DNA of 64,000 bases from positions 11,013 to 75,012 of the forward strand of contig DUEY01000002.1 in NCBI GenBank assembly GCA_011174795.1, written 5' to 3'. Below the pieces are notes generated by a model. That model worked only from the letters and a program-made list of their open reading frames with translations. It had not been told where the DNA came from and ran no database searches. The position numbers were made by a program, and so were the translations under genes. This stretch comes from Dehalococcoidia bacterium (lineage in GTDB: Bacteria; Chloroflexota; Dehalococcoidia; SZUA-161). This document shows positions 19,068 through 37,203 of this stretch, one piece after another; position 1 is the stretch's first letter; every line of letters starts with the position of its first letter.

Positions 19068-19108
19068 TAGCCATCCTTTTCCATTTGTACAGAAAAAGTT
19101 AAAGGGGG

Positions 19109-19753: not shown

Positions 19754-19794
19754 GCAAGCTCAAAAAGATATCTCCGTCACAAAGGAGGAGAGCT

Positions 19795-21243
19795 ATGAAA
19801 TCATTAAATATCCCCACCTTTCTCCCCCGATTAAAAGTACTGAACCGAGAACAGGCGTTAGCAATACACCAGGCTGCTTTAGAAATCCTGGAAAAGACGG
19901 GATTTAAGATGGAGCACCCCGACGCCCATCAAATGCTTGTCGATGCCGGGGGCAAGGTTACCAATGACGGTCGGCTTACATTACCTGCTTACCTTGTTGA
20001 AGAGGCCTTAAAAACAACTCCGAAACAGATCGCACTTTATGACCAGAAGGGCAACAAAACGATGCCCCTGGTAGACGGCAATCCATTCTACGGCACAGGT
20101 TCGGACGCCACATTCACCCTGGACCTGGAGACCGGTCAACGTCGGCGAGCTGTCTTAAAAGACGTCGCCAATTTCGCCAGACTGGTGGACAACCTTGAAA
20201 ATATCTCCTTCGCCATGTCTATGGCCAATCCCGACGATGTTCCCGTAGAGGATATCTATGTCTACGTTTTTGCCGAGATGATTAAAAACATCAACAAACC
20301 CATCGTATTCATTGCAGACAGCGGCAGAGACATTGCCAAGATCTACGAAATCGCCTGCCTTGTGGCAGGCGGTGAAGAGGAATTTCAGAAAAAACCGTTT
20401 ATGCTCAATTACTCGGAAGCCATCAGCCCTCTGCGCTTCCCGCAAAACGTTATGGAAAAACTCATTTTCTGTGCCCGGAAAAAGATACCGATTTGCCTTC
20501 CATCAGGCTCCAATGCCGGAGGCGGAGCCCCGATCACGATTGCCGGTGCCATGGCTTTGGGGATCGCCGAGAACCTGGTCGGGCTCGCTGTCCATCAGTT
20601 GACCAATAAGGGGGCGCCTTTCCTTTTCGGTCCCAATGTAAGCACTTTGGATATGAAGTCCACCGTAGTTTCTTACGGCTGCCCTGAATGGAGTCTCAGC
20701 CAAGCTGCCCTCGCTGATATGCGTGATGAAATGTACGGCTTGCCCACCTGGGCCTATGCCGGGGCCTCAGATGCTAAAGTAATGGATGCCCAGGCAGGAG
20801 CCGAGGCCATGTTTTCCATTATCACCGCCATGCTCTCCCGCTCGAATTTGATTCACGATGTAGGTTTCTTGGAATATGGGAATACCTCTTCGCTAGAGAT
20901 GGTGACCATGGCGAACGAACTGGTAGCCATGAGCCGCTTTTTTACCGAGGGTATCCCTGTCAACGAAGGGACCTTAGCCCTCGACGTAATAGAGAGGGTG
21001 GCCACTGGTGGCCCCGGTTCCATCTTCCTCACAGACGATCACACCTTCGATTATTTCAGGGAGGCCCAGTTTCTTCCACAGCTTCTAGACCGCTCCCGAT
21101 ACGATTCATGGAAAGAGGCCGGAGCTATGGACCTCTATACAGTCTGCAATACCGAAGCAAAGAGGATACTCTCGGAACATCAGGTCGAACCTAAAACCGA
21201 TGAGGTGCTTAACGAAGTCGATCGAATCCTTAAAGGACGCTGA
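19795..21243 (+). CDS. MttB-superfamily (trimethylamine methyltransferase-like, non-pyrrolysine) substrate:corrinoid methyltransferase
   Basis: Full-length 482-aa TIM-barrel MttB-family protein with no in-frame amber codon. Strong SD AGGAGGAG. Confidence 0.85.
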   Translation: MKSLNIPTFLPRLKVLNREQALAIHQAALEILEKTGFKMEHPDAHQMLVDAGGKVTNDGRLTLPAYLVEEALKTTPKQIALYDQKGNKTMPLVDGNPFYGTGSDATFTLDLETGQRRRAVLKDVANFARLVDNLENISFAMSMANPDDVPVEDIYVYVFAEMIKNINKPIVFIADSGRDIAKIYEIACLVAGGEEEFQKKPFMLNYSEAISPLRFPQNVMEKLIFCARKKIPICLPSGSNAGGGAPITIAGAMALGIAENLVGLAVHQLTNKGAPFLFGPNVSTLDMKSTVVSYGCPEWSLSQAALADMRDEMYGLPTWAYAGASDAKVMDAQAGAEAMFSIITAMLSRSNLIHDVGFLEYGNTSSLEMVTMANELVAMSRFFTEGIPVNEGTLALDVIERVATGGPGSIFLTDDHTFDYFREAQFLPQLLDRSRYDSWKEAGAMDLYTVCNTEAKRILSEHQVEPKTDEVLNEVDRILKGR

Positions 21244-21257
21244 TACGAAGTAGAATC

Positions 21258-23306
21258 ATGGGAAATAGCCTGCCATTATACAGACCACTAACCCCGAAAG
21301 ATGTCCAGCACATCGACCAAGCTGGGCGCCGAATACTGGAACGCATCGGCATCAGTATCTATGACAGTAAATTCCTCGACATTCTGAAAGCAGCAGGAGC
21401 TCAGGTAGATTACGACAATCAGAGAGTACGCTTTCCAGGAGACTGGCTTGATGAAGCTCTGGGCAAAGCCCCCTCTCGCTTCACGCTATACTCTCGAGAT
21501 GGTCGAAATGACCTTCATCTAGGAGAAGGCAACGTCTACTTCACCAACGGAGGCCGGGTATTTCGAATTCTCGACATGGGAACAAGCAATTACCGCTACA
21601 CCATGATAAGACATGTGGCACGTACTGCCGCCCTCGTGGAGCACCTGGAGCACATTCGACTTTATATCATTGCCTGTCAGGCTCACGCTCTTGAACCTCA
21701 AATATATCATTTGAACGATTTTTTCCACGCCTTCAACCATACTACGAAACATGTAATGGGAGGCTGCGATAACCTGGCAGGCGCTGAACAGGTATGGGAA
21801 CTCGCAAGCTTTATCGCAGGAGGAGAGGGTAAACTTAAAAAAAAGCCCTTCGTCTCGGTAATCACAAATATGATAAGTCCCCTTACTATTGAGACGAAAG
21901 CACTGAATATACTCGACTTTTGCACGAAACATGGTATACCCACTACATGCGCACCTGCGCCTATCGCCGGAGCCACCTCGCCCGCAACCCTGGCAGGGAC
22001 ACTTGCCCAGATGCATGCTGAAGCCTTGGCAGGAGTTGCCCTGACACAGGTGTTCGCCCCCGGCGCCAAGGTGCTCTATGGAGCTGTTCCCACGATAATG
22101 GATTTGCGAAAAATGGACTTCACAATGGGCTCGGTGGAAATGGCGATGATGAACGCTGCCGCAGTCCAACTGGCGAAGCTCTACAACCTGCCTATCTATG
22201 CCTCGGCCGGAGTCACCGAGGCTAAAAGACCTGACATTCAGGCTGGCTTCGAAAAGACCTTTTCCGATTTGCTCGTGGCTATGGCAGGGGCGGATTTCGT
22301 CCACCTGGCTGCCGGAATGCTGGATTCAGGGAATACCATTTCCTATGAACAGTATGTCATAGACAACGAGATTATCGGAATGGTTCAGAGGATACTGGCG
22401 GGCATTAAAGTGAATAAGGGTACGCTAGGACTGGATATAATCGAGAAAGTTGGGCCCGGCGGGAACTATGTCACGGAAGATCACACCGTCGAACATATGA
22501 TGGATGAATTCTTCTACCCCGCGTTAAGCGTGCGATTAAACTTCGATATATGGGAGGAAAGGGGACGTCCCAGCATATTAAGCCGCGCTAAAGACAAAGC
22601 GCAAGAAATCCTGAAAGACAGCAAAGAAGGCCTCCTGGAACCAGACCTGGTCGCTGAGATAGAAAAGGCTTTCCCCGCTATACAAATGTCAATTACAAAA
22701 TCGCCGACCAGGGCCAAACAAGCTACACGTATTATAGCTTGCATGGTTTTCAAACCTGTCCTCGATCATCTTCAATTGGAAAAAAGATATCGTAACCTGC
22801 GTATAACCTACCTGCCAGCCAACCTGCATATGAACCCGCAGAAGTTAAAAAACTACCTGCTGAAACAGATAGCCGCAGCTGAGAAAAGAAACGAGCGAAT
22901 CATATGCCTTTACGGGGACTGCTTTCCAGATATTGACGACTTTTGCGAACAGCATGGAGCAATGAAAGCTCCTGGGACTCACTGCTATGAAATGCTTCTG
23001 GGGAGTGATCAATTCAAGCAGCTTACTGAAGAAACGGCAGGTACCTATTTTCTGGAGAAAGAACTTATTCTCAACTTCGACGAATTTTGTATTCAGCCCT
23101 TGGAACTCTATGATGAAGAAATGCGAAAATATTGCTTCGAACACTACAAGAGGCTGCTCTATGTGAGGCAGCCCTCAGACCCGGATGTCACGCCCCAGAC
23201 AAAAGAACTGGTTGAATTCTTAGAGTTGCCTCTGGAGATTAGAAACGCTGATTATTCAGATCTCGAGAGGAAGTTAATCAAGTTAATCGAGCCTAGACTT
23301 CTTTGA
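21258..23306 (+). CDS. MttB-superfamily methyltransferase fused to a C-terminal ~200-aa Cys-containing domain of unknown function (DUF1638-like by recollection)
   Basis: The N-terminal ~480 aa are colinear with the other MttB paralogs. Unrelated extra C-terminal domain (CLYGDCFPDIDDFC...HCYE). Confidence 0.8.
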   Translation: MGNSLPLYRPLTPKDVQHIDQAGRRILERIGISIYDSKFLDILKAAGAQVDYDNQRVRFPGDWLDEALGKAPSRFTLYSRDGRNDLHLGEGNVYFTNGGRVFRILDMGTSNYRYTMIRHVARTAALVEHLEHIRLYIIACQAHALEPQIYHLNDFFHAFNHTTKHVMGGCDNLAGAEQVWELASFIAGGEGKLKKKPFVSVITNMISPLTIETKALNILDFCTKHGIPTTCAPAPIAGATSPATLAGTLAQMHAEALAGVALTQVFAPGAKVLYGAVPTIMDLRKMDFTMGSVEMAMMNAAAVQLAKLYNLPIYASAGVTEAKRPDIQAGFEKTFSDLLVAMAGADFVHLAAGMLDSGNTISYEQYVIDNEIIGMVQRILAGIKVNKGTLGLDIIEKVGPGGNYVTEDHTVEHMMDEFFYPALSVRLNFDIWEERGRPSILSRAKDKAQEILKDSKEGLLEPDLVAEIEKAFPAIQMSITKSPTRAKQATRIIACMVFKPVLDHLQLEKRYRNLRITYLPANLHMNPQKLKNYLLKQIAAAEKRNERIICLYGDCFPDIDDFCEQHGAMKAPGTHCYEMLLGSDQFKQLTEETAGTYFLEKELILNFDEFCIQPLELYDEEMRKYCFEHYKRLLYVRQPSDPDVTPQTKELVEFLELPLEIRNADYSDLERKLIKLIEPRLL

Positions 23307-23350
23307 TAGTCAGAGCTTTTCAAACGAACCGTAGCCGGTCTTAAGCGGAT

Positions 23351-25306
23351 ATGGGAGTTAATATGAGGAAACATCAATTGGAAACGCCACAGCATGAAAA
23401 ATTTAGGAGAGGAAAACGCCCTATTGGAACCTCCGTGCTGAAAAAAAGTAGAACACAATACGTCTGGCTGAATGTTCTACCCGATGACCTCTGGCTGAAG
23501 GTTCGCCAGGGGGAAACTGTCTGGGGAGCTTTGAAAAGAGAAGGGGTTGAACTGGAAAGCGACTGTGGCGGACTGGGTAAATGCGGTAAATGCAAAGTGC
23601 GTGTCCTCTCTTCGATAGGGCCTCCATCTAAGGAAGAAGAAGAACTCCTCGATGAGGAGGAGTTGAAACAAGGCATCCGCCTCGCCTGCCGCACCGAAGT
23701 AGACAAAGACTTTGTGATTCATACCGAAGAAACCGATTTCGAGGCTGAGTATTTTCAGATTCTCAAAACCGGCCATCGGCCTTTTTTCCATACCCAGCCA
23801 CTTATAAACAAGCGGTTAATAACCCTGCCCCCAGATTTATTGGACGAGGGGATATCCGAGATGGACCGGATTAAAATGGTGATGGTCCCCGAATATCAAG
23901 ACCTTGTAGCCCCTATCCACTGTCTCCGTACGTTACCCGAAAGGCTAGATGCAACTGATTACCATGGAGCGGCAGTGCTCCATGAGAACTCACTGCTGGC
24001 CTGGCAAGACTGGGAGGAAGTGGACTGCCACTTCGGATTGGTCTACGACCTCGGTACCAGTACACTGGTGGGCAAGCTAATCAGTCTGATAGACGGAAGC
24101 GAAGTCGCCGTAGTCTCCTGCCTCAATAGCCAGATGAAGTACGGCTCAAATGTTATCAGTCGGCTCAAATACCTGCAGGACCATGCCAACGGCCTCGAAA
24201 GGTTCCATAACCTTCTCATCAATGACTTGAACCGCATCACTACACGCCTATTAAAAGCAGCCAATCTTCAGCCGAACGACGTTTTTATCGCCGTTGCGGC
24301 GGGTAACACCACCATGCAGCATTTTCTTCTTACACTGGACCCTTCAGGGATCGCCGAAGCGCCGTTCTCGCCTGTATTAACCGACGGGCTGATTGTGGGA
24401 GCAGCAGCCGTTGGCCTCGAATTGCACCCTGAAGCCCTCTGCTATGTGATGCCAACCAAATCCGGTTATATCGGCGGAGATCTAATCAGCGTCATCCTCA
24501 CCTCTGGAGCCTGGGAACAGGAGGATGAAATTATATTGGGGCTGGATCTTGGCACCAATGGAGAAATATTTCTCGGCAACCACAAGAGACTCCTGACATG
24601 CTCAGCTGCCGCCGGCCCTGCCCTCGAGGGCGCAACAATCTCACACGGGATGATTGCCAAGGCTGGAGCTATAGAAGGCGTCAGCGTAGAAGCGGACAAT
24701 GTGAGCTATCAGATCATCGGGAATATAAAGCCCAAAGGAGTTTGTGGGAGCGGACTGGTCGATTTAGTCGCAGTGTTGTTACATTGCGGCTATATAAACC
24801 ACGAAGGCCTGCTCCGTCCACCCCGTAAAAATAGAATAGAGAGCCTGGATTCAAAAATGATCAAGCGGGCAGGAGTTTATGAATTCCTCATCGCGTCCGC
24901 GGAGGAAAGTTATAGCAGTAGACCTATGTACCTCACGCAAAAAGACATTCGAGAACTCCAACTCGCCAAAGCTGCCGTAGCAGCCGGTATACAAATTTTA
25001 ATGAACGATATGGGCATCGTCACCGAGGACATCAAACACGTTTACCTCGCCGGTGCACTCGGTAATTATGTAGACCCGTTGAGTGCCATACGTACCGGTC
25101 TTATTCCTAGATTTAATCCAGAAATTGTCACGTCATTGGGCAACGCCGCCAGCACGGGGGCTTCAATGGCCCTTTTGTCCAAGAACTACTGGCGGATGGC
25201 TAACGAGCTTTCAGACTTCATCGAGCACGTTGAGCTTTCCTCTCGCCTCGACTTCAATGAATTTTTTGTCGAGAACATGGATTTTCCTAAAGGTAATATA
25301 TGGTAA
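23351..25306 (+). CDS. reductive activator of corrinoid enzymes (RACE/RamA-like ASKHA ATPase with N-terminal 2Fe-2S ferredoxin domain)
   Basis: N-terminal plant-type ferredoxin motif CGGLGKCGKCKV, followed by an acetate/sugar kinase-like ATPase domain as in corrinoid activases. Confidence 0.8.
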   Translation: MGVNMRKHQLETPQHEKFRRGKRPIGTSVLKKSRTQYVWLNVLPDDLWLKVRQGETVWGALKREGVELESDCGGLGKCGKCKVRVLSSIGPPSKEEEELLDEEELKQGIRLACRTEVDKDFVIHTEETDFEAEYFQILKTGHRPFFHTQPLINKRLITLPPDLLDEGISEMDRIKMVMVPEYQDLVAPIHCLRTLPERLDATDYHGAAVLHENSLLAWQDWEEVDCHFGLVYDLGTSTLVGKLISLIDGSEVAVVSCLNSQMKYGSNVISRLKYLQDHANGLERFHNLLINDLNRITTRLLKAANLQPNDVFIAVAAGNTTMQHFLLTLDPSGIAEAPFSPVLTDGLIVGAAAVGLELHPEALCYVMPTKSGYIGGDLISVILTSGAWEQEDEIILGLDLGTNGEIFLGNHKRLLTCSAAAGPALEGATISHGMIAKAGAIEGVSVEADNVSYQIIGNIKPKGVCGSGLVDLVAVLLHCGYINHEGLLRPPRKNRIESLDSKMIKRAGVYEFLIASAEESYSSRPMYLTQKDIRELQLAKAAVAAGIQILMNDMGIVTEDIKHVYLAGALGNYVDPLSAIRTGLIPRFNPEIVTSLGNAASTGASMALLSKNYWRMANELSDFIEHVELSSRLDFNEFFVENMDFPKGNIW

Positions 25307-27033
25307 GAAAAAATAAGAATAAACATCAAAGCAGTGTAACCATTGGTGTTGTCGGCGCCGGCGGCGATGGGGTTGTGGTGCTGGGCAGTTTCTTACAGAG
25401 ACTTGCTGCCTCACAGGGATATTTCAGCCAGATGCCCAGGTACTATGGTGCCCAGATTCGAGGTGGAAGCTCAGCAGTAAAACTGGAGTTGAATGCAGAA
25501 TCCCTATCACTGCCCAAAGATAGCCTAGACATTCTTGTATGTTTTAACTGGGATAAGTATCTGGAGTTTGAGCAGGAACTACCGCTTGCGGTTGATACCT
25601 TGGTAATCTACGAGACTAAACCCCAAGGCGCTATCAAATTGCCAGAGCCGTCATTTCAAGTCGATTTTTCTAAAAAAAGTAAAGAGGTAACCGGTTCAAC
25701 ACAAAACAAGAATATCGTAGCACTGGGATTACTGAAGAGAATTCTGGCCCTGCCTGATAAAAAGGTAAAGGTAGCTATTGAAACCGACATTGAATTAGAA
25801 CTGTTAAAGGCGAATCTTCCCGCCCTCGAAGCGGGTGAGCACTTATTTCCAGAATTGTCTCTCCCCGAGTTTAAATTAGCCCCGGCAACAGATAAGTCTG
25901 CTAAACTGATTATCCATGGAAATGCCGCTATGGCACAAGCTGCAATACACGCCGATTGCCGGGCTTTTTTTGGCTACCCCATTACACCCGCAGCAGAAAT
26001 TATGCAGGAAATGCAAAAGGAGCTTTCCCGGAATAAGGGCGTCTTCCTTCAAACAGAGGACGAGATTGCTTCAGCAGGACTTGTTATCGGTTCTTCCATC
26101 GTTGGTGCGAAGTCGATGACCTCCACCAGCGGTCCGGGACTCGATTTGATGACCGAGATGATGGGCCTAGCTTCTGCCGCTGAAATTCCGATGGTTATCA
26201 TCGATGTACAGCGCTGCGGGCCATCTACCGGCATACCGTCCAAGTCCGAGCAGTCAGACCTCAATCATGCCATCTACGGCGGTCACGGTGACGGACCCAG
26301 AGTGGTTCTGGCTCCCTACGACGTAGAAGGGTGTTACCGCCTCGTTATCGAGGGTTTCAGTATCGCTCAATATTTCCAGACCCCTGTCGTTATACTCTCC
26401 GATCAGTGGCTGGGACAAACCTTTCTCGCAATAAACAACAGATTCATGACTGAAGACTACCCAAGCCATGCAAGAATAAGCCCCGCAGTAAATGAGCTCG
26501 CTGATTATCACCGTTACCAGTTGACAGATAAGCTGATTTCGCCGATGGCAGCCGTAGGGGACGAAGGATTTACGTATCAAACAACCGGCCTTACTCACAA
26601 TGAGGAGGGGGCGCCGGCCTTCGATTTCGAGACCCATCAGAGAATGCATGAGAAAAGGTGGAGGAAACTGGCGCCGCTTTGCCAGAGGAATGATCTGGTT
26701 AAGGTTTTTGGTAAAGAGGAATCAAGCACAGGAATAATAACCTGGGGCTCCTCCGCTCAGGTTGTCCTGGAAACGGTCAAAGCCCTCGGGTTAGAGCATA
26801 GTCTCAAGCTTTGTGTACCAGAACTGGTCCACCCTCTACCAATAGGGGTCGAGAGGTTTATAAGCTCCATAAAAAAACTTCTAGTGGTCGAGATGAATTA
26901 TTCCGGGCAGTTTTATCATTATCTTCGGTCTCAAATAGACTTGCCCAAGAAAACCGAGCTCTACGCAAGGGCTGGAGGTCGACTCTTCAGCAGGAAAGAG
27001 CTTGCCCAACCCATAACAAAGGTGGCGAAATGA
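25300..27033 (+). CDS. 2-oxoacid:ferredoxin oxidoreductase, fused gamma-alpha subunit
   Basis: N-terminal gamma-like domain (GVVGAGGDG) and KorA/PorA core (GNAAMAQAAIHADCRAFFGYPITPA). Start overlaps the RACE stop by 7 nt (ATGGTAA). Confidence 0.8.
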   Translation: MVRKNKNKHQSSVTIGVVGAGGDGVVVLGSFLQRLAASQGYFSQMPRYYGAQIRGGSSAVKLELNAESLSLPKDSLDILVCFNWDKYLEFEQELPLAVDTLVIYETKPQGAIKLPEPSFQVDFSKKSKEVTGSTQNKNIVALGLLKRILALPDKKVKVAIETDIELELLKANLPALEAGEHLFPELSLPEFKLAPATDKSAKLIIHGNAAMAQAAIHADCRAFFGYPITPAAEIMQEMQKELSRNKGVFLQTEDEIASAGLVIGSSIVGAKSMTSTSGPGLDLMTEMMGLASAAEIPMVIIDVQRCGPSTGIPSKSEQSDLNHAIYGGHGDGPRVVLAPYDVEGCYRLVIEGFSIAQYFQTPVVILSDQWLGQTFLAINNRFMTEDYPSHARISPAVNELADYHRYQLTDKLISPMAAVGDEGFTYQTTGLTHNEEGAPAFDFETHQRMHEKRWRKLAPLCQRNDLVKVFGKEESSTGIITWGSSAQVVLETVKALGLEHSLKLCVPELVHPLPIGVERFISSIKKLLVVEMNYSGQFYHYLRSQIDLPKKTELYARAGGRLFSRKELAQPITKVAK

Positions 27034-27870: not shown

Positions 27871-28719
27871 TTATACAGTTACCTGCATGCCATCGTAAGC
27901 AAAGCGTATCCTCTTATCTTTTGACTCCAGGGCCTGATAGTCATCGTAACTGCGGTTCCAGTACTCCTCAAGGTGAACGAAGAGAACCTTCTTAGCCCTT
28001 ATGCGTCCAGCAAGCTCGAGGGTCTGCTCAAAGGTGTAGAGTGTCATCCTGGAGATATGATCGGCCGGATACCTGAAATTGTGTTTCAATCCCTCCTCGA
28101 ATATCCCCGGCTGGATAATCAACAGGTCGGCCTGCTGAACCTCGCCCCTGTGCTCAGGGAAGGGCTTGATATCGCAGGGGGCATAGACCACCTTGCAGCC
28201 CGACTGCTCGAAAACATAAATAAACGACAACTGAGAATCACGGTCAACCGGTATAGCAGTAACCTGAATATCTCCAATCCGGACTTTTTCCTGAAAGGTC
28301 TCCAGCCTGATAAAACCGCTCTCCTGGTAAAAGTCGAGCAGTGGCCCATACTGTGAGCGTATCTTCCTTAATGGCTCACGCAGCTCCTCGGGGAGCAGCA
28401 GGCAAATCTGCTTCTCTGGATAAGCACGCCAAGTACGAAAATCAAGCGAAATCTGTTCTACTACACGGAATCCCTCCACGTGGTCAGGGTCGAGATGAGT
28501 GAAAGTCAGGTAGTCGACACGACGTATAGCTGAACGGTTCAACAGTGTTATAATCTCAGCCGGGGTATCGATTAACAGGTTGATATCATGCAATAAAGCG
28601 GAGGGGCCTGCCCTAGCATAGGGAACACCCCTCTTCCTAGCTTCCCGGCAGACCCGGCAGCGGCACAGGGGCTTGGGGATGACCATACACCCCCCGGAGC
28701 CCAATATTGTGAATTCCAT
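27871..28719 (-). CDS. MBL-fold metallo-hydrolase
   Basis: Metallo-beta-lactamase motif THLDPDHVEG (HxHxDH-like). Confidence 0.7.
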   Translation of the reverse strand: MEFTILGSGGCMVIPKPLCRCRVCREARKRGVPYARAGPSALLHDINLLIDTPAEIITLLNRSAIRRVDYLTFTHLDPDHVEGFRVVEQISLDFRTWRAYPEKQICLLLPEELREPLRKIRSQYGPLLDFYQESGFIRLETFQEKVRIGDIQVTAIPVDRDSQLSFIYVFEQSGCKVVYAPCDIKPFPEHRGEVQQADLLIIQPGIFEEGLKHNFRYPADHISRMTLYTFEQTLELAGRIRAKKVLFVHLEEYWNRSYDDYQALESKDKRIRFAYDGMQVTV

Positions 28720-28767: not shown

Positions 28768-30357
28768 TCAGTGCACATGTTTCAAGTCGCCATCCATCGT
28801 GCCCCTCACCTTCTCCCTCTCCTCGGCAAAATCGAAACCCGTCCAGATTCCGATTGAACCAAGCACCGAGTCCTGAGGATGGTACTTACGGAAGATTTTA
28901 AAATAGTATGCCGCTTCCCGGCTGTTTATCTTCGCCAAAGGATTCTCAGCCTTGATGCGCTCGAAATCATCCTCACTTATTTCACTGTGAGCCAGCTTTT
29001 CCCCAAGGTCTTCGCAGCCCGCTCCCTGTGTGTACTGCACCTTGTAGCGCCATAGTATATCGTCGGGGAGGTAACCGGTATCTTCAAACGCCTTGCGCAG
29101 AATCCACTTCTCTATCCTATCCCCGACATATTCAGACTCACGAATCTTGAGCTCGGGAGGAATCTTCATAGCGAGGTCGACCATAGCTACATCCAAGAAA
29201 GGCACCCGTAACTCCAGGCTGAAGTACATCCCCATTCGGTCCGCACGCTGCAGGTTTATATTATGGAGATTGCCGATGCAGCGCCTCGCCTCCTTATTGA
29301 GAACATCAATGGGATAATGCTTCATATAGTGATAGCCCGTGAATATCTCGTCCGCCCCCTCACCTGTGAGCACCACCGTCACGTAATCGGCAGCCAGCTT
29401 GCAGGTGAAATAACAGGGAACGGCACAGCGTACAAGTGAAGGATCGTAGCTCTCAAGCTCCTTTATAACAATCGGCAGCGCCTCATAGTATTCATCCTCG
29501 GTAAATATCAACTCGTGATGTGTTGAGCCAATATGTTTTGCCGCAATACGGGAGGCCTTAAGGTCATCGCTCTCATCGCCGGATTCATCCTTCATGCCCA
29601 CCACGAAGGTGTGAAGATGAGGTATCTCTTCAGCAGCTATTGCAGCCACCAAGCTGCTGTCCAAACCGCCACTGCAGAAGGAGCCCACATGGATCTCCTT
29701 ATCCGACAACAACCTTTTCTTAACCGCCCGAATAAACGTTTCCCTGATTTTCATACAGGTCTGGTCTATATCCGTCAACATATGATCTTCGATAGGCGGA
29801 ATCTCATAGTACTGTACAAACCCCTCCTTAGGGGTGTAATAGTGCCCGGCGGGAAACTCATGACACTCCTCCACACCAGCCAGCGTCATAGCACCGAGTT
29901 CCGAGGAGAAATAAAGCTTGTCCTCAACATAGCCATAGTAGAGGGGTTTAATACCGATAGGATCGCGGGCCAGCATAAAATCATCACCATCGAAGATGGC
30001 AAATGCGAACATACCATCGAGTTCTTCTACACACCGAGGTCCTTTCTCTCGGTAAAGATGAAGAATTGATTCAGTATCCGACTGGGTCAGGAACTCGTAT
30101 TTAGAGATGAGCTTCTGCCGTAACTCCCGGTAGTTGTAGATTTCACCATTACAGATTATCCCCGTCCTTCCACCATTTACCAGAATGGGCTGATGGCCTT
30201 TAGCAACATCGACAATAGACAGCCTGGTGTGACCAAATACCGTGTTGTTGAAAGTATGGAGTCCGCGGTCATCTGGCCCTCGATGAGGCAGTGCGTCCAG
30301 CATTCGATTGATTGTCTTTTCGTCTCTGGTGCCAAAACAACCTGCTATGCCACACAT
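28768..30357 (-). CDS. asnB: asparagine synthase (glutamine-hydrolysing) family protein
   Basis: N-terminal MCGIAG Cys nucleophile, RLSIVD glutamine-binding motif, PP-loop SGGLDSS. Confidence 0.85.
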   Translation of the reverse strand: MCGIAGCFGTRDEKTINRMLDALPHRGPDDRGLHTFNNTVFGHTRLSIVDVAKGHQPILVNGGRTGIICNGEIYNYRELRQKLISKYEFLTQSDTESILHLYREKGPRCVEELDGMFAFAIFDGDDFMLARDPIGIKPLYYGYVEDKLYFSSELGAMTLAGVEECHEFPAGHYYTPKEGFVQYYEIPPIEDHMLTDIDQTCMKIRETFIRAVKKRLLSDKEIHVGSFCSGGLDSSLVAAIAAEEIPHLHTFVVGMKDESGDESDDLKASRIAAKHIGSTHHELIFTEDEYYEALPIVIKELESYDPSLVRCAVPCYFTCKLAADYVTVVLTGEGADEIFTGYHYMKHYPIDVLNKEARRCIGNLHNINLQRADRMGMYFSLELRVPFLDVAMVDLAMKIPPELKIRESEYVGDRIEKWILRKAFEDTGYLPDDILWRYKVQYTQGAGCEDLGEKLAHSEISEDDFERIKAENPLAKINSREAAYYFKIFRKYHPQDSVLGSIGIWTGFDFAEEREKVRGTMDGDLKHVH

Positions 30358-30426
30358 GGGTCTCGCCTTCTTAGCTTAGTCTACTCGTTTTTTGTTACGT
30401 CCATATTTCAAAGTTCAACGAACCGG

Positions 30427-31908
30427 TTATGCATTATCCAGGAAGAAAGCCGGCCTGAAAGGATCCCACCTGCCTACTAACCTATCGAAGGCAGGATCGG
30501 GGAATGTCTCCTTGAACATCCGGTAGTAATACAACTCCTCAACTGACGACAACCAGGGGGTATCCTCGGTCCTGTTGTGTTCTGCCAGGTCGATTGATGA
30601 GAGGTGCTTCTCAGCCTCCTCACGCATAGCATACGCTACACCAGAGCCCTGAGCGAAGAACCGCTTCGTCTGGTAGATGATGTGGTCGGGCAAACAACCC
30701 TCAAAGGCCTGTCGCAGGACCCACTTCCCCGTCTGCTCAGGGCCATGAATCTTGCAACTTAGTGGGATCTTCAGACAAAAGTCCATCACCCTTGCATCGA
30801 GGAACGGTGTGCGGCTTTCATACGAATTCGCAGCATTCAGTCTATCCAGCCGTTGTAGTGCTGTATTATGAGCAACATTGATAAGCTGGTCGACTATACT
30901 GGCGATCTCCTCAAGGTTTTTTCCCTGCCTGAACTGGCCGTCATACCCGGCTAAGAACTCATCAGCCCCTTCCCCAGTAAGAACGCACTTAGCATGCGGG
31001 CTGACAAAGCGCCCTGCCAAGAAATTGGCGATTGCACCGTGTACACAGCTTTCCTCATACATCTCCTGATGATAGATGGCCAAAGGCAGTATCTCGCTTA
31101 TCTCTTTTTCGCTAAACATCAAGATATGATGCTTAAGGCCAAGGTACTCCGTCACATCCTTTGCCAGCGGCAGGTCCTGCCCCTCCTCCATACTCACCGT
31201 AAAGCATTCGATATCCGGCTTTACCTCGTGGGCCATATAGGCAATAAGGCTGCTGTCCAGACCGCCACTCAGGAGGATACCTTTTACAGCGTTGTCCCTC
31301 ATCCTCTTTTCAGTTGCTTCCATTAAAAGCTGCTTTACCACTTTCTTGGCTTGCTCATAATCCTCGAAATCCGGTGTTTCGACGGCCTCGGAAGTCGGAT
31401 ACTTCTGGAATCCCAGTTCGCGGGAGTAAACGTATCCGGGCGGGAACTCCCTGACATCTCTAGAGATGCCCACCAGTGCTTTTGCCTCAGATGCAAAGCA
31501 CAGGCTCCCATCACTGTTATGCCCGTAGTATATCGGTTTAATACCAGCCCAATCACGAGCCAGTATTAGCTTGCCATTATCCGACACGGCACAGGCAAAG
31601 TCGCCGTTTATCTTAGCGGCAAAGCGGGTGCCGAACCTGACGTACAGGTCAAGCACAGCCTCAGCGTCGGCTTTAGTTCCCTTATCCGAATTGTAAACAC
31701 GCCCATCGAGAACGACCGCTACCTTGCCGTCAGAGGTATAATGGGAGCCATCCCTGCAGTCTGCACCCATATTCAGCTCATTGCAACCTACATTCACCTC
31801 GCCTTCGCGGCTCGTCCAAGTCTCGTGAGGGCCTCTGTGCTTGATCCGCTCAAGCATTCGGTCTAGCTCACCGTTATCAGCACCCTGAACTCCCGCTATT
31901 CCTGCCAA
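30427..31908 (-). CDS. AsnB-family ATP-dependent amidoligase with degenerate glutaminase domain (Cys1 replaced by Ala; beta-lactam-synthetase-like architecture)
   Basis: The N-terminus is MAGIAG (no Cys), and the glutamine-binding RLSI motif is replaced. The PP-loop SGGLDSS is retained. Confidence 0.75.
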   Translation of the reverse strand: MAGIAGVQGADNGELDRMLERIKHRGPHETWTSREGEVNVGCNELNMGADCRDGSHYTSDGKVAVVLDGRVYNSDKGTKADAEAVLDLYVRFGTRFAAKINGDFACAVSDNGKLILARDWAGIKPIYYGHNSDGSLCFASEAKALVGISRDVREFPPGYVYSRELGFQKYPTSEAVETPDFEDYEQAKKVVKQLLMEATEKRMRDNAVKGILLSGGLDSSLIAYMAHEVKPDIECFTVSMEEGQDLPLAKDVTEYLGLKHHILMFSEKEISEILPLAIYHQEMYEESCVHGAIANFLAGRFVSPHAKCVLTGEGADEFLAGYDGQFRQGKNLEEIASIVDQLINVAHNTALQRLDRLNAANSYESRTPFLDARVMDFCLKIPLSCKIHGPEQTGKWVLRQAFEGCLPDHIIYQTKRFFAQGSGVAYAMREEAEKHLSSIDLAEHNRTEDTPWLSSVEELYYYRMFKETFPDPAFDRLVGRWDPFRPAFFLDNA

Positions 31909-31931
31909 GAATCACCTCTTTCTAGGAGATT

Positions 31932-31961
31932 AATATATCTATGATATATCATAGATATATT
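31932..31961. promoter_or_regulatory. perfect 30-bp AT-rich palindrome (candidate operator) between the corrinoid-protein gene stop and the AsnB-like gene start
   Basis: taatatatctatgatatatcatagatatat is an exact reverse-complement match over 28-30 bp, about 24 nt upstream of the 31908 start codon. Confidence 0.5.
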
Positions 31962-31978
31962 TGATTCTACGCCCACGC

Positions 31979-32653
31979 CTACTGGTAGGCGTCCAGTACC
32001 TTAACAGCATCGAAGCCATCCACACAATAGGCATCCGCCCCTATCTCGCTGGCGTACTCATCGGACACCGCTGCCCCACCAATGAGAACCTTAACCTTGT
32101 CCCTGAGGCCACTCTCCTCCAGCGCCTTAATTACATTACCCATGACTACCATCGTGGTTGTCAGTAGAGCGGACAGCCCCAGATACTGAGGCTTCTCTTC
32201 CCTGACGAACTCAACAATCTTCTCCGTGGGCACATCTATACCCAGGTCATGCACCTCGTATCCCGCCCCTTTGAGCAAAATGGACACAATGTTCTTCCCG
32301 ATATCGTGTATATCACCCTGAACCGTGGCTATAGCGAATTTCCCCTTGGTCTCCACATTAGAAGCTTCCAGATGCGGCTTGAGCACATCCATGGCTGCGC
32401 CTACCGCCTCGGCAGAGGCAAGCATATCGGGGATGAAGTATTCCTTCGTAGAGAATTTCTCACCTACCACCTGCATCCCCGCAGTCAAACCCTCCGTGAT
32501 TATCACCTGCGGTGAGATACCCTTATCCAGAGCCTCCTTCGTCAACTCAAGAACACCGGGACCCGTGAGTTCCTCATCTATCCCTTCATCTTCCTCGGTT
32601 TTTCTTCCCTGGATAACGTTCTCCTTCATTGCCGCAATAATGTCCTCGCCCAT
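31979..32653 (-). CDS. cobalamin-binding corrinoid protein (second copy)
   Basis: DxHxxG motif (DIHDIGKN). Paralog of the 19109-19753 protein. Confidence 0.8.
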   Translation of the reverse strand: MGEDIIAAMKENVIQGRKTEEDEGIDEELTGPGVLELTKEALDKGISPQVIITEGLTAGMQVVGEKFSTKEYFIPDMLASAEAVGAAMDVLKPHLEASNVETKGKFAIATVQGDIHDIGKNIVSILLKGAGYEVHDLGIDVPTEKIVEFVREEKPQYLGLSALLTTTMVVMGNVIKALEESGLRDKVKVLIGGAAVSDEYASEIGADAYCVDGFDAVKVLDAYQ

Positions 32654-32655
32654 TT

Positions 32656-34197
32656 TTATCTCCTTTCCTCATATACGTTTAGTCTCGGCAACAAGCCGGG
32701 AATCTCCTGGAATATCTTAGCTGTTGTAGCCTTATCAATATGCTCTACCGGCTTCTCCAGGAGTTCCTGCATCCTGTCATATGCTATTTTAAATACGCTG
32801 TCCGTCTCCCCATCACCCTCAAAGGGATAGGGCGGCGAGAGTTGCCCGCTACGCATAACCTTGCGGATATAGCTGATATAAAGCTTCTGTGGTGTCGTTA
32901 CGACCTCCCGTATCTGCTTCAAGACCTCAGCAATCTCAGTTTCGTCAATACGCGGCGGCCTTAGGAAAAACTTAATCATCTGGAAGTGGGCATCATCCAG
33001 CACAGCCTGAAGAAGGCAGAAAACGGAATTGCAGTCAAGCAGACCGTATGCGCAGTGCAAGTACTGGGGCCCGCTCAAGGTAACCAATATGTCTGAGAAT
33101 AAACGCTCTATCGATGCTTGCTGTCCGGGCGTCTTCGTATCACAGACGCCCGCAGTCGAATAGTTAGGTATCCTGTAGAATCGCGCCATCTGGACGCAGT
33201 CGACATTGTACTGGCTGGTTTCAACAGCACCGTAGGAATCGCCGAGGGTATCCATGCGAGCCCGAACGGGGACGCTTCCATAAATGACCGGCGTACCCTT
33301 ATTTACCAGCTGACTCAAGGTTATACCCGCTAGAACCTCCGCGTTTATCTGAGCCATGATACCTGCTTCCTTGATAGGAGCGGTGCTCCCCGCCTGGGGT
33401 GACGAAGAAACCACCAGTGGCAGTCCCCTTCGGCAAATCTCGATAAATGTATCCGTAGTGTCCTCGACAAATTGCAGGGGGCTCTTGACCAGACAGGTGA
33501 TGAAGGAGATGATGGGATTCTCCCTAAGCTCTTCCTCCCCACCCACTATTATCTTCGCCATATTCACAACATTATCTAGTTGCTTCAGGCTGGTTAACCC
33601 CGACATAAAATGCTTGGTGTTATTATTCAAAGAGGCGAAATATTTATTGACGTCCTTATTCTCCTCTGTTATGTCCCTATCCTGAATGTTAACTGTACGG
33701 ATGTAGCCATCCACAGTCTCCAGATGCTCACAGACATGTGCTGACTTGCAGAGGTCAGCCACAGTACCGCGTCGCGGGTGGAACTCAGGCACCTGAATCT
33801 CCGTAGCAGGGTCGGATTTCTTCACATAGGTCGGGAAATCGACATCCAGCCAGATATTGGTTTCAGAGCCCGTGATAAAACGTACCCTTGGCTCTTCGCC
33901 ATCCAGTATCAGCATGTTCTCGGGATTCCTAGCGCCTAATTTAACCGTCTTGGGTGCGCTATCGAGGGCCTCGATAACTACCTTCTCCGGGATTCTCACC
34001 AGCCAGCACGGATGGTCGCTGGGGGAAACCGGCGTAACCTCCGCACCTTTGCCATCGAATATCTCAGCGGCCTCACGATTGAAAGACATCAGGCCAGGGT
34101 CGCTCAATATCTCTATGGAAGCCTGGTGAATCTGTTCCACCTGCTCTCTGGTCATCCTTTCGTAAGGCTTCTCAACTAAGATTCCTTCCCTAGGCAC
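32656..34197 (-). CDS. MttB-superfamily methyltransferase (non-pyrrolysine)
   Basis: 513 aa, colinear with the other MttB paralogs, uninterrupted ORF. Confidence 0.85.
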   Translation of the reverse strand: MPREGILVEKPYERMTREQVEQIHQASIEILSDPGLMSFNREAAEIFDGKGAEVTPVSPSDHPCWLVRIPEKVVIEALDSAPKTVKLGARNPENMLILDGEEPRVRFITGSETNIWLDVDFPTYVKKSDPATEIQVPEFHPRRGTVADLCKSAHVCEHLETVDGYIRTVNIQDRDITEENKDVNKYFASLNNNTKHFMSGLTSLKQLDNVVNMAKIIVGGEEELRENPIISFITCLVKSPLQFVEDTTDTFIEICRRGLPLVVSSSPQAGSTAPIKEAGIMAQINAEVLAGITLSQLVNKGTPVIYGSVPVRARMDTLGDSYGAVETSQYNVDCVQMARFYRIPNYSTAGVCDTKTPGQQASIERLFSDILVTLSGPQYLHCAYGLLDCNSVFCLLQAVLDDAHFQMIKFFLRPPRIDETEIAEVLKQIREVVTTPQKLYISYIRKVMRSGQLSPPYPFEGDGETDSVFKIAYDRMQELLEKPVEHIDKATTAKIFQEIPGLLPRLNVYEERR

Positions 34198-34252: not shown

Positions 34253-35062
34253 CTACTCTACCAGCAGGCCCTTCCTGTGAGCCCTGATAAAGCCTTTACA
34301 CGATGGGTCATTCCCCGTAAGCATATCAGCAACCCTGATGAAACTCATCATCCTAGCATCCAGTGGGTTCAGAATAGCGGCATCGAGCCCCGCAGAAGCT
34401 GCCATTACAAGAAAGGCACGGTTGACCAAACCCCGGTTCGGCAATCCGTAAGAGATGTTGCTGAGCCCGACCACAGTTTTTGCGGAAGGATAACGGGACT
34501 TAATCCCCTCAATAGTCTTCAGCGTGACGAACCCCTGGTTAGAATCTACAGAAACGGGAAGCACCAGAGGGTCGAAGAATATCTGCTCCTCCTGCATCCC
34601 CAGACGAGTCAAGTGCACCATGATCGACTCAGCAGCGTCGAGACGCTCGTCAACGGTGGGAGGGATTCCCCCCTCTCCCATAACCAGCGCCACCAGCGAA
34701 GCCCGGCGCTCCGCTGCTAATCTACCCACAGGTTCCAGCCTGTCAGGCTCGGCATTGACCGAATTGATCATCACATTGTCACCACGGTATTTACGCAAGC
34801 CAGCCTCAATAATGGAGGGAGTATCGCTATCAATAGCCAGCGGCTTCTCCGTTACTGACTGAACGATATCCACTAACCACTCCATCGCCATCGCAGGATT
34901 CTCCCAGGTGCCGTGGCCAACCCCAGCGTTTACATCTATGAAATCGGCCCCGGCAGCATCCTGCTCCCTAGTAAGGTTCTCCAGGAACTCCTGATTTTTA
35001 TTCGATATTGCCTCACCAACCGACTTGTTGGAGGCATTTATCTTCTCACCAATTACTAGCAA
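34253..35062 (-). CDS. methyltetrahydrofolate:corrinoid methyltransferase (MtrH/MeTr-like), second copy
   Basis: MLVIGEKINASNK...GADFIDVNAG. Paralog of the 18270-19067 protein. TTG start. Confidence 0.75.
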   Translation of the reverse strand: MLVIGEKINASNKSVGEAISNKNQEFLENLTREQDAAGADFIDVNAGVGHGTWENPAMAMEWLVDIVQSVTEKPLAIDSDTPSIIEAGLRKYRGDNVMINSVNAEPDRLEPVGRLAAERRASLVALVMGEGGIPPTVDERLDAAESIMVHLTRLGMQEEQIFFDPLVLPVSVDSNQGFVTLKTIEGIKSRYPSAKTVVGLSNISYGLPNRGLVNRAFLVMAASAGLDAAILNPLDARMMSFIRVADMLTGNDPSCKGFIRAHRKGLLVE

Positions 35063-35078
35063 CTTTCTACACTCCCAT

Positions 35079-36521
35079 CTACGATTCTACGATGCCTTTT
35101 ATCTCAGACAACACTCTGGCTCTTATGTCAACAGGCAAGCTATAGCCGTCTTTTGCCAAGATATCATCCACCCTCGCCGCCGCCCTCTCCCATGTTTTCT
35201 TAGCCCCTCCAGCCTCCCAATCCCCTCGGCTATTCCTATCGCTGAGCGCAGGCTGATAATGTTGATCTCGCATAAACCGCCTGGTATGCTTGGCGGAAAC
35301 GAAATTACCCCCCGGCCCCACCTCCTTAATGAGGTCAAAGGCCATCGTCTCCTCGTTCACCTCTATACCCTGAACAGCCCTCATCACCATCCCCAGTATC
35401 TCGTTATCCACAACATATTTCTCATAGCATGCAGTCAGAGCAAACTCCATAAGACCTGCAGCGTCGTGGATATAATTTGCGCCAGCCAGAGCATTGAGAA
35501 GTCCAGTGATAGCAGACTCATATCCGCTCTGTGCATCCACAACCTTAGCGTCAGTCATGCCTCCGGTGGAATAGAAGGGGAGCTGGTAAAACTGCGCCAT
35601 CTGTGCCCCACCCGCGTTAATGAGGCCCATCTCAACAGAGCCAGCCAGATAATTGAAGTTACTGAGGTCTGTGCTCGTTGCCACCGAGCCCAGAATAACA
35701 GGCGTCCCCGGACTCGCGAGTTGGGTAAGCATCACGCCCATCAATGAGTCTACTGTTTGCATTAATATATTACCGGCGAGCGTCACCGGCGAGGTAGCCC
35801 CACAGAGCGGTTCTGCGGGGCAGACCACAGGTATGCCGCTTCTTGCGATAGCTATCATAAAGTCGCCGTACTCTTTGTCTATCTTCAACGGGCTTATGGT
35901 ACAGGCTATCATCGATATAATAGGACGCTGGCGAAGGCTATCGGCAGAACCGGCGATAATCTCCGCCATCTTTATCACCTGCTTCAGACCATCCATGGTA
36001 TATAGCCCGCCCATAACATGCTTGCTGGTATTGTCCAAGCCTGCGAAGAAGCGATTTATGTCCACCTGCTCTATTGGCAAATCGTTAGGGTATGTAGGCA
36101 GCAGGAAGAAGTGGATATTATCCAGGTGGTCAACCAGCTTGGCGATGCACCTCAGGTCATCCAGGGTGGCAGGTGTCTTTTCACCCGTAGCCTGCCGAAA
36201 GATGTTCAGGGCAGTCCCCCCCGTCCCTGCATAGACACGAGTTCCACCCAGATGAAGATCGTGCTTCTCCTCTTGACCGCAGAGCGTTATCTCAGACGGC
36301 GCCATCTCTATCAGTTCCATCGCCTTCTCAGTTGGTAAACGCACCAGCCTCTTTTCGTCATCCACCAAAGCCCCCGCCCTCCTGAAAAGGTCCAGTCCGT
36401 TATCGGAATGAACCTGAAAGCCTACTTCCTCGATTACTCTCATGACATTCAGGTGCATCATCTGAATGCCCTCTTCGGTAATCGGCTTAAAGCTGCCGCC
36501 GGGTAATCCCCTCCGTATCAT
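35079..36521 (-). CDS. MttB-superfamily methyltransferase (non-pyrrolysine)
   Basis: Start set at the internal Met preceded by a strong SD (AGGAGGTG), which avoids a 62-nt overlap with the upstream gene. 480 aa. Confidence 0.8.
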   Translation of the reverse strand: MIRRGLPGGSFKPITEEGIQMMHLNVMRVIEEVGFQVHSDNGLDLFRRAGALVDDEKRLVRLPTEKAMELIEMAPSEITLCGQEEKHDLHLGGTRVYAGTGGTALNIFRQATGEKTPATLDDLRCIAKLVDHLDNIHFFLLPTYPNDLPIEQVDINRFFAGLDNTSKHVMGGLYTMDGLKQVIKMAEIIAGSADSLRQRPIISMIACTISPLKIDKEYGDFMIAIARSGIPVVCPAEPLCGATSPVTLAGNILMQTVDSLMGVMLTQLASPGTPVILGSVATSTDLSNFNYLAGSVEMGLINAGGAQMAQFYQLPFYSTGGMTDAKVVDAQSGYESAITGLLNALAGANYIHDAAGLMEFALTACYEKYVVDNEILGMVMRAVQGIEVNEETMAFDLIKEVGPGGNFVSAKHTRRFMRDQHYQPALSDRNSRGDWEAGGAKKTWERAAARVDDILAKDGYSLPVDIRARVLSEIKGIVES

Positions 36522-36528
36522 ATAGGTT

Positions 36529-37203
36529 TCACCTCCTGCCCAGACAATCGTATTTACGACAGGTTTCACAGGGATTGTAATTCTTCGCACCGCTATCGGG
36601 CGTACTTATACCAATAATACCTGAGATTGACTTTTGGGGAACCATAAGATAACCCTCGGTAAGTTGAACCCCTATCGAATCTCCTTCCAAAGCCGTAAAA
36701 ACCATCTCCTGCTGACTTATGTCCCAGTCACAATAGCCTGGGCTGAAGCGCCGACTGGTAACAAGTCCCTCAACCCTGGCTTTGTCATCCAGAATCCCCT
36801 TAACGAAATCTGCTAATTTTTCGACTGCATCTGACCCTATTGCATCCAGAACGTACGACTGAAGTATAAGCCCGTCTTCAGCCAGCCTATTAGCCATTTC
36901 CTCAAGATATTTCCCTATTGTTACTACAAATAACGCAACCTTACAACACCTGTCCAGCAGGCGAGCAATAACCTCGCCGTTAAACACGATCGACCCTTCA
37001 ATATAGATGTTAGAGCCCACCACCTGCTCGATATCCCTGATAATATATACGTACAACGGCTCGATTAGATTGTGAGCCTCTCCCATATATTCTTTAATCA
37101 AAGAAGAAATACGCAACGATGGTTTAATGCCATTGCGATATCCCAGATGGCGACACACGTTTTTTCTATCGATTTTTATATCTATATGATCGCTAGTAAC
37201 CAT
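36529..37203 (-). CDS. standalone vitamin-B12-dependent methionine synthase activation (reactivation) domain homolog
   Basis: RRFSPGYCDWDIS and LTEGYLMVPQKSISGIIG align with E. coli MetH RPAPGYPACPEHT and LTESFAMWPGASVSGWYF of the AdoMet-binding reactivation domain. Confidence 0.7.
   Translation of the reverse strand: MVTSDHIDIKIDRKNVCRHLGYRNGIKPSLRISSLIKEYMGEAHNLIEPLYVYIIRDIEQVVGSNIYIEGSIVFNGEVIARLLDRCCKVALFVVTIGKYLEEMANRLAEDGLILQSYVLDAIGSDAVEKLADFVKGILDDKARVEGLVTSRRFSPGYCDWDISQQEMVFTALEGDSIGVQLTEGYLMVPQKSISGIIGISTPDSGAKNYNPCETCRKYDCLGRR

Follow-up and report, generated by a model that had tools for sequence, protein, structure and literature searches.

The DNA analysed here, called the window, is a 64,000-nucleotide stretch of contig DUEY01000002.1 from a Dehalococcoidia bacterium (assembly GCA_011174795.1, positions 11,013 to 75,012), and it carries on its reverse strand two neighbouring genes of the asparagine synthetase B (AsnB) family. 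The upstream copy, named AsnX here, is the terminal gene of an operon that begins with a MetH-activation-like gene and continues with MttB_b, a methyl-tetrahydrofolate (methyl-THF) methyltransferase, MttB_a and a corrinoid protein. Comparison across genomes firmly supports AsnX as a conserved component of this one type of MttB/corrinoid operon. The operon in its direction of transcription, and the genes that follow it, are the following.

36529-37203, reverse strand: first operon gene, encoding a small protein similar to the MetH activation domain (Met_synt_B12)
35079-36590, reverse strand: MttB_b, a non-pyrrolysine MttB-family methyltransferase with G/Y/D/A at the MtgB substrate positions
34253-35062, reverse strand: methyl-THF:corrinoid methyltransferase (pterin-binding)
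32656-34197, reverse strand: MttB_a, a divergent non-pyrrolysine MttB-family methyltransferase with S/Y/C/N at MtgB Y97/R312/H348/F356
31979-32653, reverse strand: corrinoid (B12-binding) protein, MtgC-like, immediately upstream of AsnX
31933-31960, no strand: perfect AT-rich palindrome of 28 bp in the corrinoid-AsnX spacer, with 0 matches in 100 shuffles
31912-31918, reverse strand: ribosome-binding region of AsnX, a Shine-Dalgarno GAGGTG (31918-31913) overlapping an in-frame TGA (31914-31912)
30427-31908, reverse strand: AsnX, predicted Cys-less AsnB-like ATP-pyrophosphatase/amide synthetase of 493 amino acids (aa), from sequence, profiles and fold
28768-30357, reverse strand: canonical glutamine-dependent AsnB of 529 aa with MCGIAG, RLSIVD and SLVR, from profile and motifs
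27871-28719, reverse strand: metallo-β-lactamase (MBL)-fold hydrolase, Lactamase_B_2, with a PhnP-like N-terminal CxCxxC, from profile

AsnB and human asparagine synthetase (ASNS) consist of a class II N-terminal-nucleophile glutamine amidotransferase (GATase) fused to a PP-loop ATP pyrophosphatase. The AsnX reading frame starts with TTG (31908-31906), 5 nt behind the Shine-Dalgarno sequence, and its N-terminus reads M-A-G-I-A-G, with Ala at position 2 in place of the nucleophile Cys1. A start further upstream that restores the Cys, a possibility raised with the original prediction for this locus, is excluded because the in-frame TGA lies two codons 5' of the TTG. Nor is the loss of the Cys a sequencing or annotation artefact, since the 120+ clusters of the family, 77-88% identical to AsnX, nearly all begin with (M/V/L)AGIAG; a protein identical to AsnX is also recorded from a Dehalococcoidia metagenome-assembled genome. 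The residues that bind glutamine in AsnB are Arg49, Asn74, Gly75, Glu76 and Asp98 (PMC6748925, PMC5775275); AsnX has Glu, Asp, Gly, Arg and Asp at these positions, and all five are intact in the downstream AsnB. Expressed in E. coli AsnB numbering, which is off by one between sources, the changes are Cys1 to Ala, Arg49 to Glu, Asn74 to Asp and Glu76 to Arg, and they can be followed in GCNELNMG against GHTRLSIVD and in LDGRVYN against CNGEIYN of the downstream protein. AsnX retains the PP-loop LLSGGLDSS, GEGADE and the Lys449 equivalent. Indeed, S214-S219, E313, D316, E317 and K415 are invariant in both family alignments, where E313, D316 and E317 correspond to E. coli Glu348, Asp351 and Glu352 from the alignment to PDB AsnB, and K415 to Lys449 by our reading of that alignment. 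The Thr-Thr-x-Arg (TT.R) position is SCVH in AsnX, within EESCVHG, its version of a motif typical of its clade, and SLVR in the downstream AsnB. In a full-length alignment the two proteins share 32% identity. The curated NCBIfam equivalog model of AsnB, NF006949 (cut-off 499 bits), gives 333 bits for AsnX and 599 bits for the downstream AsnB, which carries Cys1. The AlphaFold model of AsnX has a pLDDT of 90.

These residues firmly support the prediction that the glutaminase site of AsnX is dead and its adenylation site intact, and that AsnX is a glutamine-independent enzyme derived from AsnB. Its function is probably a different one from the usual glutamine-dependent synthesis of asparagine. 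The original prediction had already recognised the missing nucleophile, the replaced glutamine-binding residues and the intact SGGLDSS of the upstream copy, as well as the canonical character of the downstream one, and it was right on these points. It had further proposed that the pair could modify or amidate a small molecule instead of making asparagine; we read the downstream copy as an ordinary AsnB.

The same prediction had likened AsnX to β-lactam synthetase (BLS) and carbapenam synthetase (CarA), so that AsnX would form an intramolecular amide in a small molecule, together with the canonical AsnB and the MBL hydrolase. The pattern of a dead GATase domain and an intact adenylation domain is common to all of them: BLS and CarA, too, are homologous to AsnB and combine an N-terminal domain without activity with an adenylating domain that works. 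Unlike AsnX, they are found in antibiotic gene clusters and make intramolecular lactams. Against PDB sequences, AsnX scores 168 bits with E. coli AsnB and 131 with human ASNS, versus 75 with BLS and 49 with CarA, and its predicted fold gives TM-scores of 0.85 to AsnB (1CT9) and human ASNS, versus 0.72-0.76 to BLS and 0.64-0.73 to CarA. The HMMER alignment to 1JGT sets ltGYGAD of BLS opposite ltGEGAD of AsnX, and the Tyr of the BLS motif, which we take to be Tyr348 of the BLS catalytic dyad, is Glu in AsnX. Moreover, clavam or carbapenem biosynthetic genes are absent around AsnX, whose neighbours are MttB, corrinoid protein, pterin methyltransferase, AsnB and MBL genes, the last two being facultative. 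On the bit scores, the TM-scores, the Glu and the gene context, membership of AsnX in the BLS/CarA group was rejected, and a role in intramolecular amide formation is extremely unlikely. In sequence and modelled fold, AsnX resembles AsnB far more than BLS. AsnB and ASNS are its best sequence match and share with it the two-domain fold, the PP-loop, GEGADE and the Lys449 equivalent; AsnX differs from them in lacking Cys1, Arg49/Asn74/Glu76 and TT.R, and in being encoded in MttB/corrinoid operons. BLS also carries Glu where TT.R has Arg, which suggests that this Arg goes with aspartate as substrate and is dispensable for adenylation in general. Lasso-peptide cyclases, which are likewise Cys-less AsnB homologues forming amides via adenylation, were considered and rejected as well: AsnX scores 125 bits against a cut-off of 525 for NF033535, and no leader protease, RRE or precursor-peptide genes adjoin it.

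The AsnX family is well delimited. When the sequence library was clustered at 50% identity, the family formed one cluster, and its next relatives, 39-42% identical, also lack the Cys. In a neighbour-joining tree of 158 AsnB-like proteins, a distance-based analysis with bootstrapping on a 68-taxon subset, the AsnX clade of 28 sequences was monophyletic (100/100 bootstrap replicates). AsnX clusters with uncharacterised Cys-less AsnB-like proteins and stands apart both from proven asparagine synthetases and from BLS/CarA. Position 2 of the 28 sequences is Ala in 23, Ser in 4 and Thr in 1. The hallmark of the clade is [DE]xxC[VI]xG, which replaces the DxxLVR[SG] or TTIR motif of the canonical enzymes. 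All members of the clade share the Cys and Gly of this motif, whereas His, Ser, Tyr, Lys or Thr stands in place of the Arg. Clade-specific positions concentrate in this TT.R region (E286, C288, G291 and the loss of the Arg), a type of motif that has been cited as binding aspartate and ATP (PMC5775275). AsnX further gains the clade-specific acidic residues D205, E286 and D482, together with several large-to-small changes. A far larger set of Cys-less AsnB-like proteins, with Ser or Ala at position 2, keeps LVRS and falls outside the AsnX clade. Within the AsnX family the mean column identity is 0.82 for the N-terminal and 0.88 for the C-terminal domain; since the N-terminal domain is conserved nearly as well as the synthetase domain, it is retained for a reason, under purifying selection.

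Gene neighbourhoods were compared in 13 loci found by exact-protein look-up and 80 loci from one genome per species, onto all of which the window proteins were mapped. Loci with AsnX at least 60% identical (66 loci) were taken as the close family, and those at 40-50% identity as distant relatives. Many of these loci are phylogenetically related and not independent, open reading frame (ORF) calling was crude in the GC-rich ones, and the taxonomic labels of metagenome-assembled genomes (MAGs) may include binning errors. The original prediction had taken the tandem pair with the adjacent MBL hydrolase as a functional unit. Conservation of this neighbourhood was not found: in the close family, canonical AsnB follows AsnX in 4 of 50 loci and the MBL gene in 15 of 45, and canonical AsnB adjoins AsnX on either side in 4 of 19 distant loci. 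The conserved partners are instead the corrinoid gene, directly upstream of AsnX in 55 of 58 close loci, and MttB, within 8 kb upstream in 49 of 51. The AsnX-AsnB tandem is thus not the conserved unit. The spacers between the corrinoid gene and AsnX are mostly 27-57 bp long, with a conserved AAAGGAG Shine-Dalgarno sequence. The pair had also been placed between two methyltransferase loci, a position that is correct, although the description was incomplete, AsnX being the terminal gene of one of these loci across phyla.

Relatives of AsnX with 40-50% identity occur in Planctomycetota, Phycisphaerae, Lentisphaerota, Elusimicrobiota, Anaerolineales and other Dehalococcoidia, and 13 of the 19 distant loci have MttB within 8 kb on either side. 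Three gene orders were seen among them: AsnX-activation protein-MttB-pterin methyltransferase-MttB-corrinoid protein; MttB-MttB-activation protein-AsnX; and MttB-MttB-C8-(ABC transporter ATPase, permease, OpuAC-type betaine-binding protein)-AsnX. The MttB proteins of the distant loci are orthologous to MttB_b and MttB_a, being 43-49% identical to their counterparts versus 29% between the paralogues. The clade is operon-linked, on the same strand, to this MttB pair in Chloroflexota, Thermodesulfobacteriota, Planctomycetota, Lentisphaerota and Elusimicrobiota. OpuAC-type betaine-binding ABC importers lie beside AsnX in several distant loci (e.g. L078, L081, L083, L084, L088 and L090). C8 is a conserved protein of 408-435 aa and an uncharacterised component of distant operons (L083 5950-7236; also L008, L073, L078, L081, L086, L087, L089, L090 and L175); it has a marginal match to S-adenosylmethionine-dependent methyltransferases and no sequence relative in the PDB, and its gene has the MttB pair or corrinoid gene on one side and the OpuA-type transporter or AsnX on the other.

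The whole operon, at 62-78% identity, was also found in MAGs labelled Syntrophales, Deltaproteobacteria or Thermodesulfobacteriota. The loci with such labels are L020, L026, L029, L036, L040, L046, L048, L051-L053, L055-L058, L065 and L068, and in L058 the operon lies on a single Syntrophales contig of 2.79 Mb. This points to lateral movement of the AsnX operon between Chloroflexota and Thermodesulfobacteriota, some cases of which may be binning errors.

In another account of the locus, AsnX would simply be an ammonia-dependent isozyme of asparagine synthetase and the MttB operon would merely lie in, or be co-regulated with, a nitrogen neighbourhood. Glutamine synthetase (GS) or NadE flank some AsnX operons, canonical AsnB and glutamate synthase (GOGAT) adjoin some as well, AsnX and AsnB alternate at the same position, and the catalytic Glu, Asp and Lys of AsnB are kept in AsnX, all of which is in line with this account. 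Nevertheless, the link to the same MttB pair persists at 40% identity, in at least five phyla and in differing gene orders, the spacers are operon-like, and the invariant changes of the clade (C288, G291 and the Arg loss) are absent from the larger Cys-less AsnB-like group. We consider it quite improbable that AsnX has no coupling to the pathway. Nitrogen-assimilation genes occur near AsnX in few loci only and are mainly tied to canonical AsnB. In one relative, AsnX is flanked by a glutamate-synthase-like gene and a DAO-type gene; the latter was rejected as a sarcosine oxidase and is L-2-hydroxyglutarate-oxidase-like. NAD-biosynthesis genes adjoin AsnX or MttB in three unrelated contigs (NadA in L008 5769-6674; glutamine-dependent NadE in L088 5547-7160 and in L176 1-832), an adjacency that may be due to chance or be part of the nitrogen-island theme; a connection with substrates of the N-methylnicotinate type was considered as a possibility.

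The reciprocal comparison started from MttB_a. A scan of metagenome contigs with the MttB_a alignment returned only close relatives (77-86% identical), so that what follows holds for the close family only. Sufficient sequence beyond the cognate corrinoid gene was available in 48 loci, and in every one of them the next gene belongs to the AsnB superfamily, with no empty slot. The occupant is of the AsnX type in 41 of the 48, about 31 of which have the EESCVHG motif of the window and 9 a DEDCISG motif (34-37% identical). The remaining 7 are canonical Cys-containing AsnB orthologues (85-88% identical), followed by the MBL gene. An MBL gene behind AsnX or AsnB is confined to some of the Dehalococcoidia-type loci.

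Canonical AsnB itself appears in several settings. In some Dehalococcoidia, an orthologue 84% identical to the downstream AsnB lies in a compact nitrogen island with the order split GOGAT-AsnB-Amt-PII-GS-NadE; in L177/L178 (4754-15347) this island is followed by a possible regulator with WHD_RNase_R and NRD1_2 domains. In L165 an MttB operon stands between the NadE and AsnB of such an island, and L176 has the order NadE-operon-AsnX'-AsnB-GS. A relative 69% identical to the window AsnB was found inside an operon of the order MarR-activation-MttB-pterin-MttB-corrinoid-C8-SH3-AsnB-ABC. We read the downstream gene as an ordinary, glutamine-dependent housekeeping AsnB of a nitrogen-assimilation regulon to which the MttB operon tends to be adjacent, and the window as the full AsnX-AsnB-MBL arrangement from which other lineages have lost AsnB or AsnX. 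AsnB is a facultative neighbour of AsnX.

AsnX might also be a non-catalytic or regulatory partner of canonical AsnB, which is normally a homodimer. Canonical AsnB of two lineages adjoins AsnX, in Dehalococcoidia and in Planctomycetota/Lentisphaerota-type loci, and the N-terminal domain is conserved though catalytically dead. Yet 46 of 50 close and 15 of 19 distant AsnX genes have no adjacent AsnB. Moreover, a pseudoenzyme would not usually keep its PP-loop, catalytic Glu and Lys, whereas no member of the clade has lost them. A pseudoenzyme or heteromer of this kind is very unlikely.

The methyltransferases of the operon give some indication of the substrate. The glycine-betaine site of MtgB was defined from its structure as Y97, R312, H348 and F356, with R312 conserved in all characterised members that act on acidic substrates (PMC13080624). 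All four residues differ in both MttB_a and MttB_b, so that glycine betaine as their direct substrate is not supported. The Arg312 position is Tyr in both, a residue kept in the orthologues of both across phyla, and MttB_b has Asp in place of His348. In sequence comparison, MttB_a and MttB_b are two new, uncharacterised MttB subfamilies that occur as a pair, with orthologues in L008 and L072-L090, and since the Arg312 position is a conserved Tyr, a free carboxylate is probably not what holds their substrate in place.

These pockets would fit a role of AsnX in substrate activation, the main alternative to the reading that we prefer below. With ATP and ammonia, AsnX would amidate an imported betaine-type quaternary amine, or its partly demethylated product, at the carboxylate, and the resulting carboxamide would be the true methyl donor of MttB_a and MttB_b; the acid might be set free afterwards by an amidase, perhaps the MBL hydrolase. 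An MttB cluster that encodes an ATP-dependent enzyme for derivatising the substrate is already known: MthK of Eubacterium limosum converts choline to phosphocholine, the true substrate of the MttB-family protein MthB (PMC12155760). Like AsnX, MthK is an ATP-using accessory encoded in an MttB-family cluster (MthB/MthC/MthA) and co-localised with its MttB partner in many genomes; unlike AsnX, it is an unrelated kinase that makes a phosphoester and not an amide, and its role was shown experimentally, that of AsnX being inferred. In the ASNS model, the acidic cluster that AsnX keeps in GEGADE is the one that contacts aspartate at its α-amino group (PMC6748925). Together with the added D205, E286 and D482, the smaller residues and the missing TT.R Arg, this would suit a cationic substrate without an α-carboxylate, and the importers of the OpuAC type beside AsnX in distant loci would fit as well. 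Activation explains the altered pockets of both MttB and AsnX better than nitrogen capture does.

Several points speak against it. Conversion of ATP to AMP and pyrophosphate (PPi) for each substrate molecule would be expensive for anaerobic methylotrophy, the canonical and apparently fully aspartate-type AsnB in 7 of 48 slots is left unexplained, and we know of no natural betaine amide that serves as a methyl donor. The MBL gene, for its part, is found in no more than about a third of the loci, and its likeness to PhnP suggests a phosphodiesterase. On balance, amidation of the betaine carboxylate in this form appears unlikely. The related and broader claim, in which AsnX takes an imported quaternary or methylated amine and turns it, through ATP-dependent amidation or aspartyl conjugation, into the real methyl donor of the new MttB pair, is rather unlikely too. 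If it were true, amide-type compounds would be a new substrate class for corrinoid-dependent demethylation, and AsnB-like enzymes would be the second kind of substrate-activating accessory for MttB systems after MthK.

Our tentative proposal is that AsnX might be a glutamine-independent amide synthetase of the AsnB type that carries out an amide-forming step of a pathway for methylated or quaternary amines, as the terminal gene of the MttB/corrinoid operon. Because AsnX is almost always the last gene of operons of this MttB type, the pathways concerned probably include an ATP-dependent amide-forming step that has not been described before. ATP would bind the PP-loop and a carboxylate would be adenylated; free ammonia or a small amine, and not ammonia derived from glutamine, would then attack the acyl-AMP to give an amide, AMP and PPi. 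In the version that we slightly prefer, AsnX would fix the ammonia or amine nitrogen freed by demethylation onto an aspartate-like acyl substrate. Such nitrogen capture would explain why nitrogen-assimilation genes sometimes adjoin, and why canonical AsnB can occupy the same slot, AS-B enzymes being able to use ammonia or glutamine (PMC3854871).

The logic would be that of γ-glutamylmethylamide synthetase (GmaS), which, like other γ-glutamyl-amine synthetases, captures an amine on an acidic amino-acid side chain at the expense of ATP, as a step in the use of methylated amines. GmaS differs in having a glutamine-synthetase fold and releasing ADP and Pi instead of AMP and PPi, and it is not homologous to AsnX.

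A number of observations weigh against this proposal. The TT.R Arg is not conserved across the AsnX clade, and work by Boehlein in 1997 reportedly found that E. coli AsnB cannot form β-aspartyl-AMP without this Arg; aspartate is therefore a less likely acyl substrate for a clade that has lost it. Demethylation of quaternary amines itself frees no ammonia, nitrogen-assimilation genes lie near few AsnX loci, and AMP and PPi per turnover are costly for an anaerobe. The missing Arg312 of both MttB proteins would be consistent with substrate activation at least as well as with an amide-forming capture step. Furthermore, MttB is missing from the 8 kb around AsnX in 6 of the 19 distant relatives whose flanks are long enough, and, as noted above, many loci come from related lineages.

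Full-text searches of the literature found nothing relevant that links asparagine synthetase or synthase with MttB, corrinoid or trimethylamine methyltransferase, and no AsnX-like gene is mentioned in the papers on MtgB/MttB systems that we examined. Database names for the AsnX protein are "asparagine synthase-related protein" or "hypothetical". We regard AsnX as a new subfamily of the AsnB superfamily in a new, conserved pathway context, and not as a new kind of system. Its motif and its gene context define a recognisable subfamily among the genes annotated "asparagine synthase-related", and they caution against naming such genes asnB or β-lactam-synthetase-like. Most non-pyrrolysine members of the MttB superfamily are still without an assigned substrate; In anoxic sediments these proteins are abundant, and what becomes of methylated amines from osmolytes, and hence how much methane precursor is supplied, depends in part on them. 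AsnX offers a biochemical handle on an MttB operon type of Dehalococcoidia, Syntrophales, Planctomycetota, Lentisphaerota and Elusimicrobiota, and it should point to the substrate, or to the nitrogen-capture step, of two MttB subfamilies that lack the carboxylate-binding Arg of MtgB.

The spacer upstream of AsnX contains the palindrome to which the original prediction had drawn attention. It exists, as a perfect palindrome of 28 bp (31933-31960) that is unique in the window and folds strongly as RNA (z = -3.8). It is specific to this genome, has no counterpart in the same spacer of about 55 related loci and is not a conserved part of the system; scans for promoters and terminators were at chance level, and a conserved operator or terminator was rejected on both grounds. 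The palindrome looks like a lineage-specific insertion.

No recombination scar was seen between AsnX and AsnB in the window. In L102, a chimeric ORF of 80 aa (5954-6196) between AsnX' and canonical AsnB joins the N-terminal 56 aa of the MBL protein to the C-terminus of the corrinoid protein, a scar left by recombination of two alternative ways in which the operon can end. In L007 (8264-9864), canonical AsnB is split into ORFs of 83 aa and 435 aa, probably by a frameshift or as a pseudogene, and the adjoining AsnX is intact.

A second corrinoid methyltransferase locus lies at 18270-25306 of the window, on the forward strand, and comprises the following genes.

18270-19058, forward strand: pterin-binding methyltransferase
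19184-19720, forward strand: corrinoid protein
19831-21234, forward strand: MttB
21258-23306, forward strand: MttB::DUF1638 fusion
23351-25306, forward strand: RACo-type reductive activase with a 2Fe-2S domain

Since the window encodes its own RACo, AsnX would not be needed for corrinoid reactivation. AsnX as an ATP-dependent reductive activase of the corrinoid protein was considered unlikely for this reason and because distant AsnX loci have MttB without an adjacent corrinoid gene.

Two listed starts in the window overlap the preceding genes. The GTG of MttB_b (36590) overlaps the preceding gene by 62 nt (36529-36590), and the TTG of a thiamine pyrophosphate-enzyme β-subunit (26811) overlaps the gene before it by 223 nt (26811-27033); in both cases, the true start probably lies further downstream.

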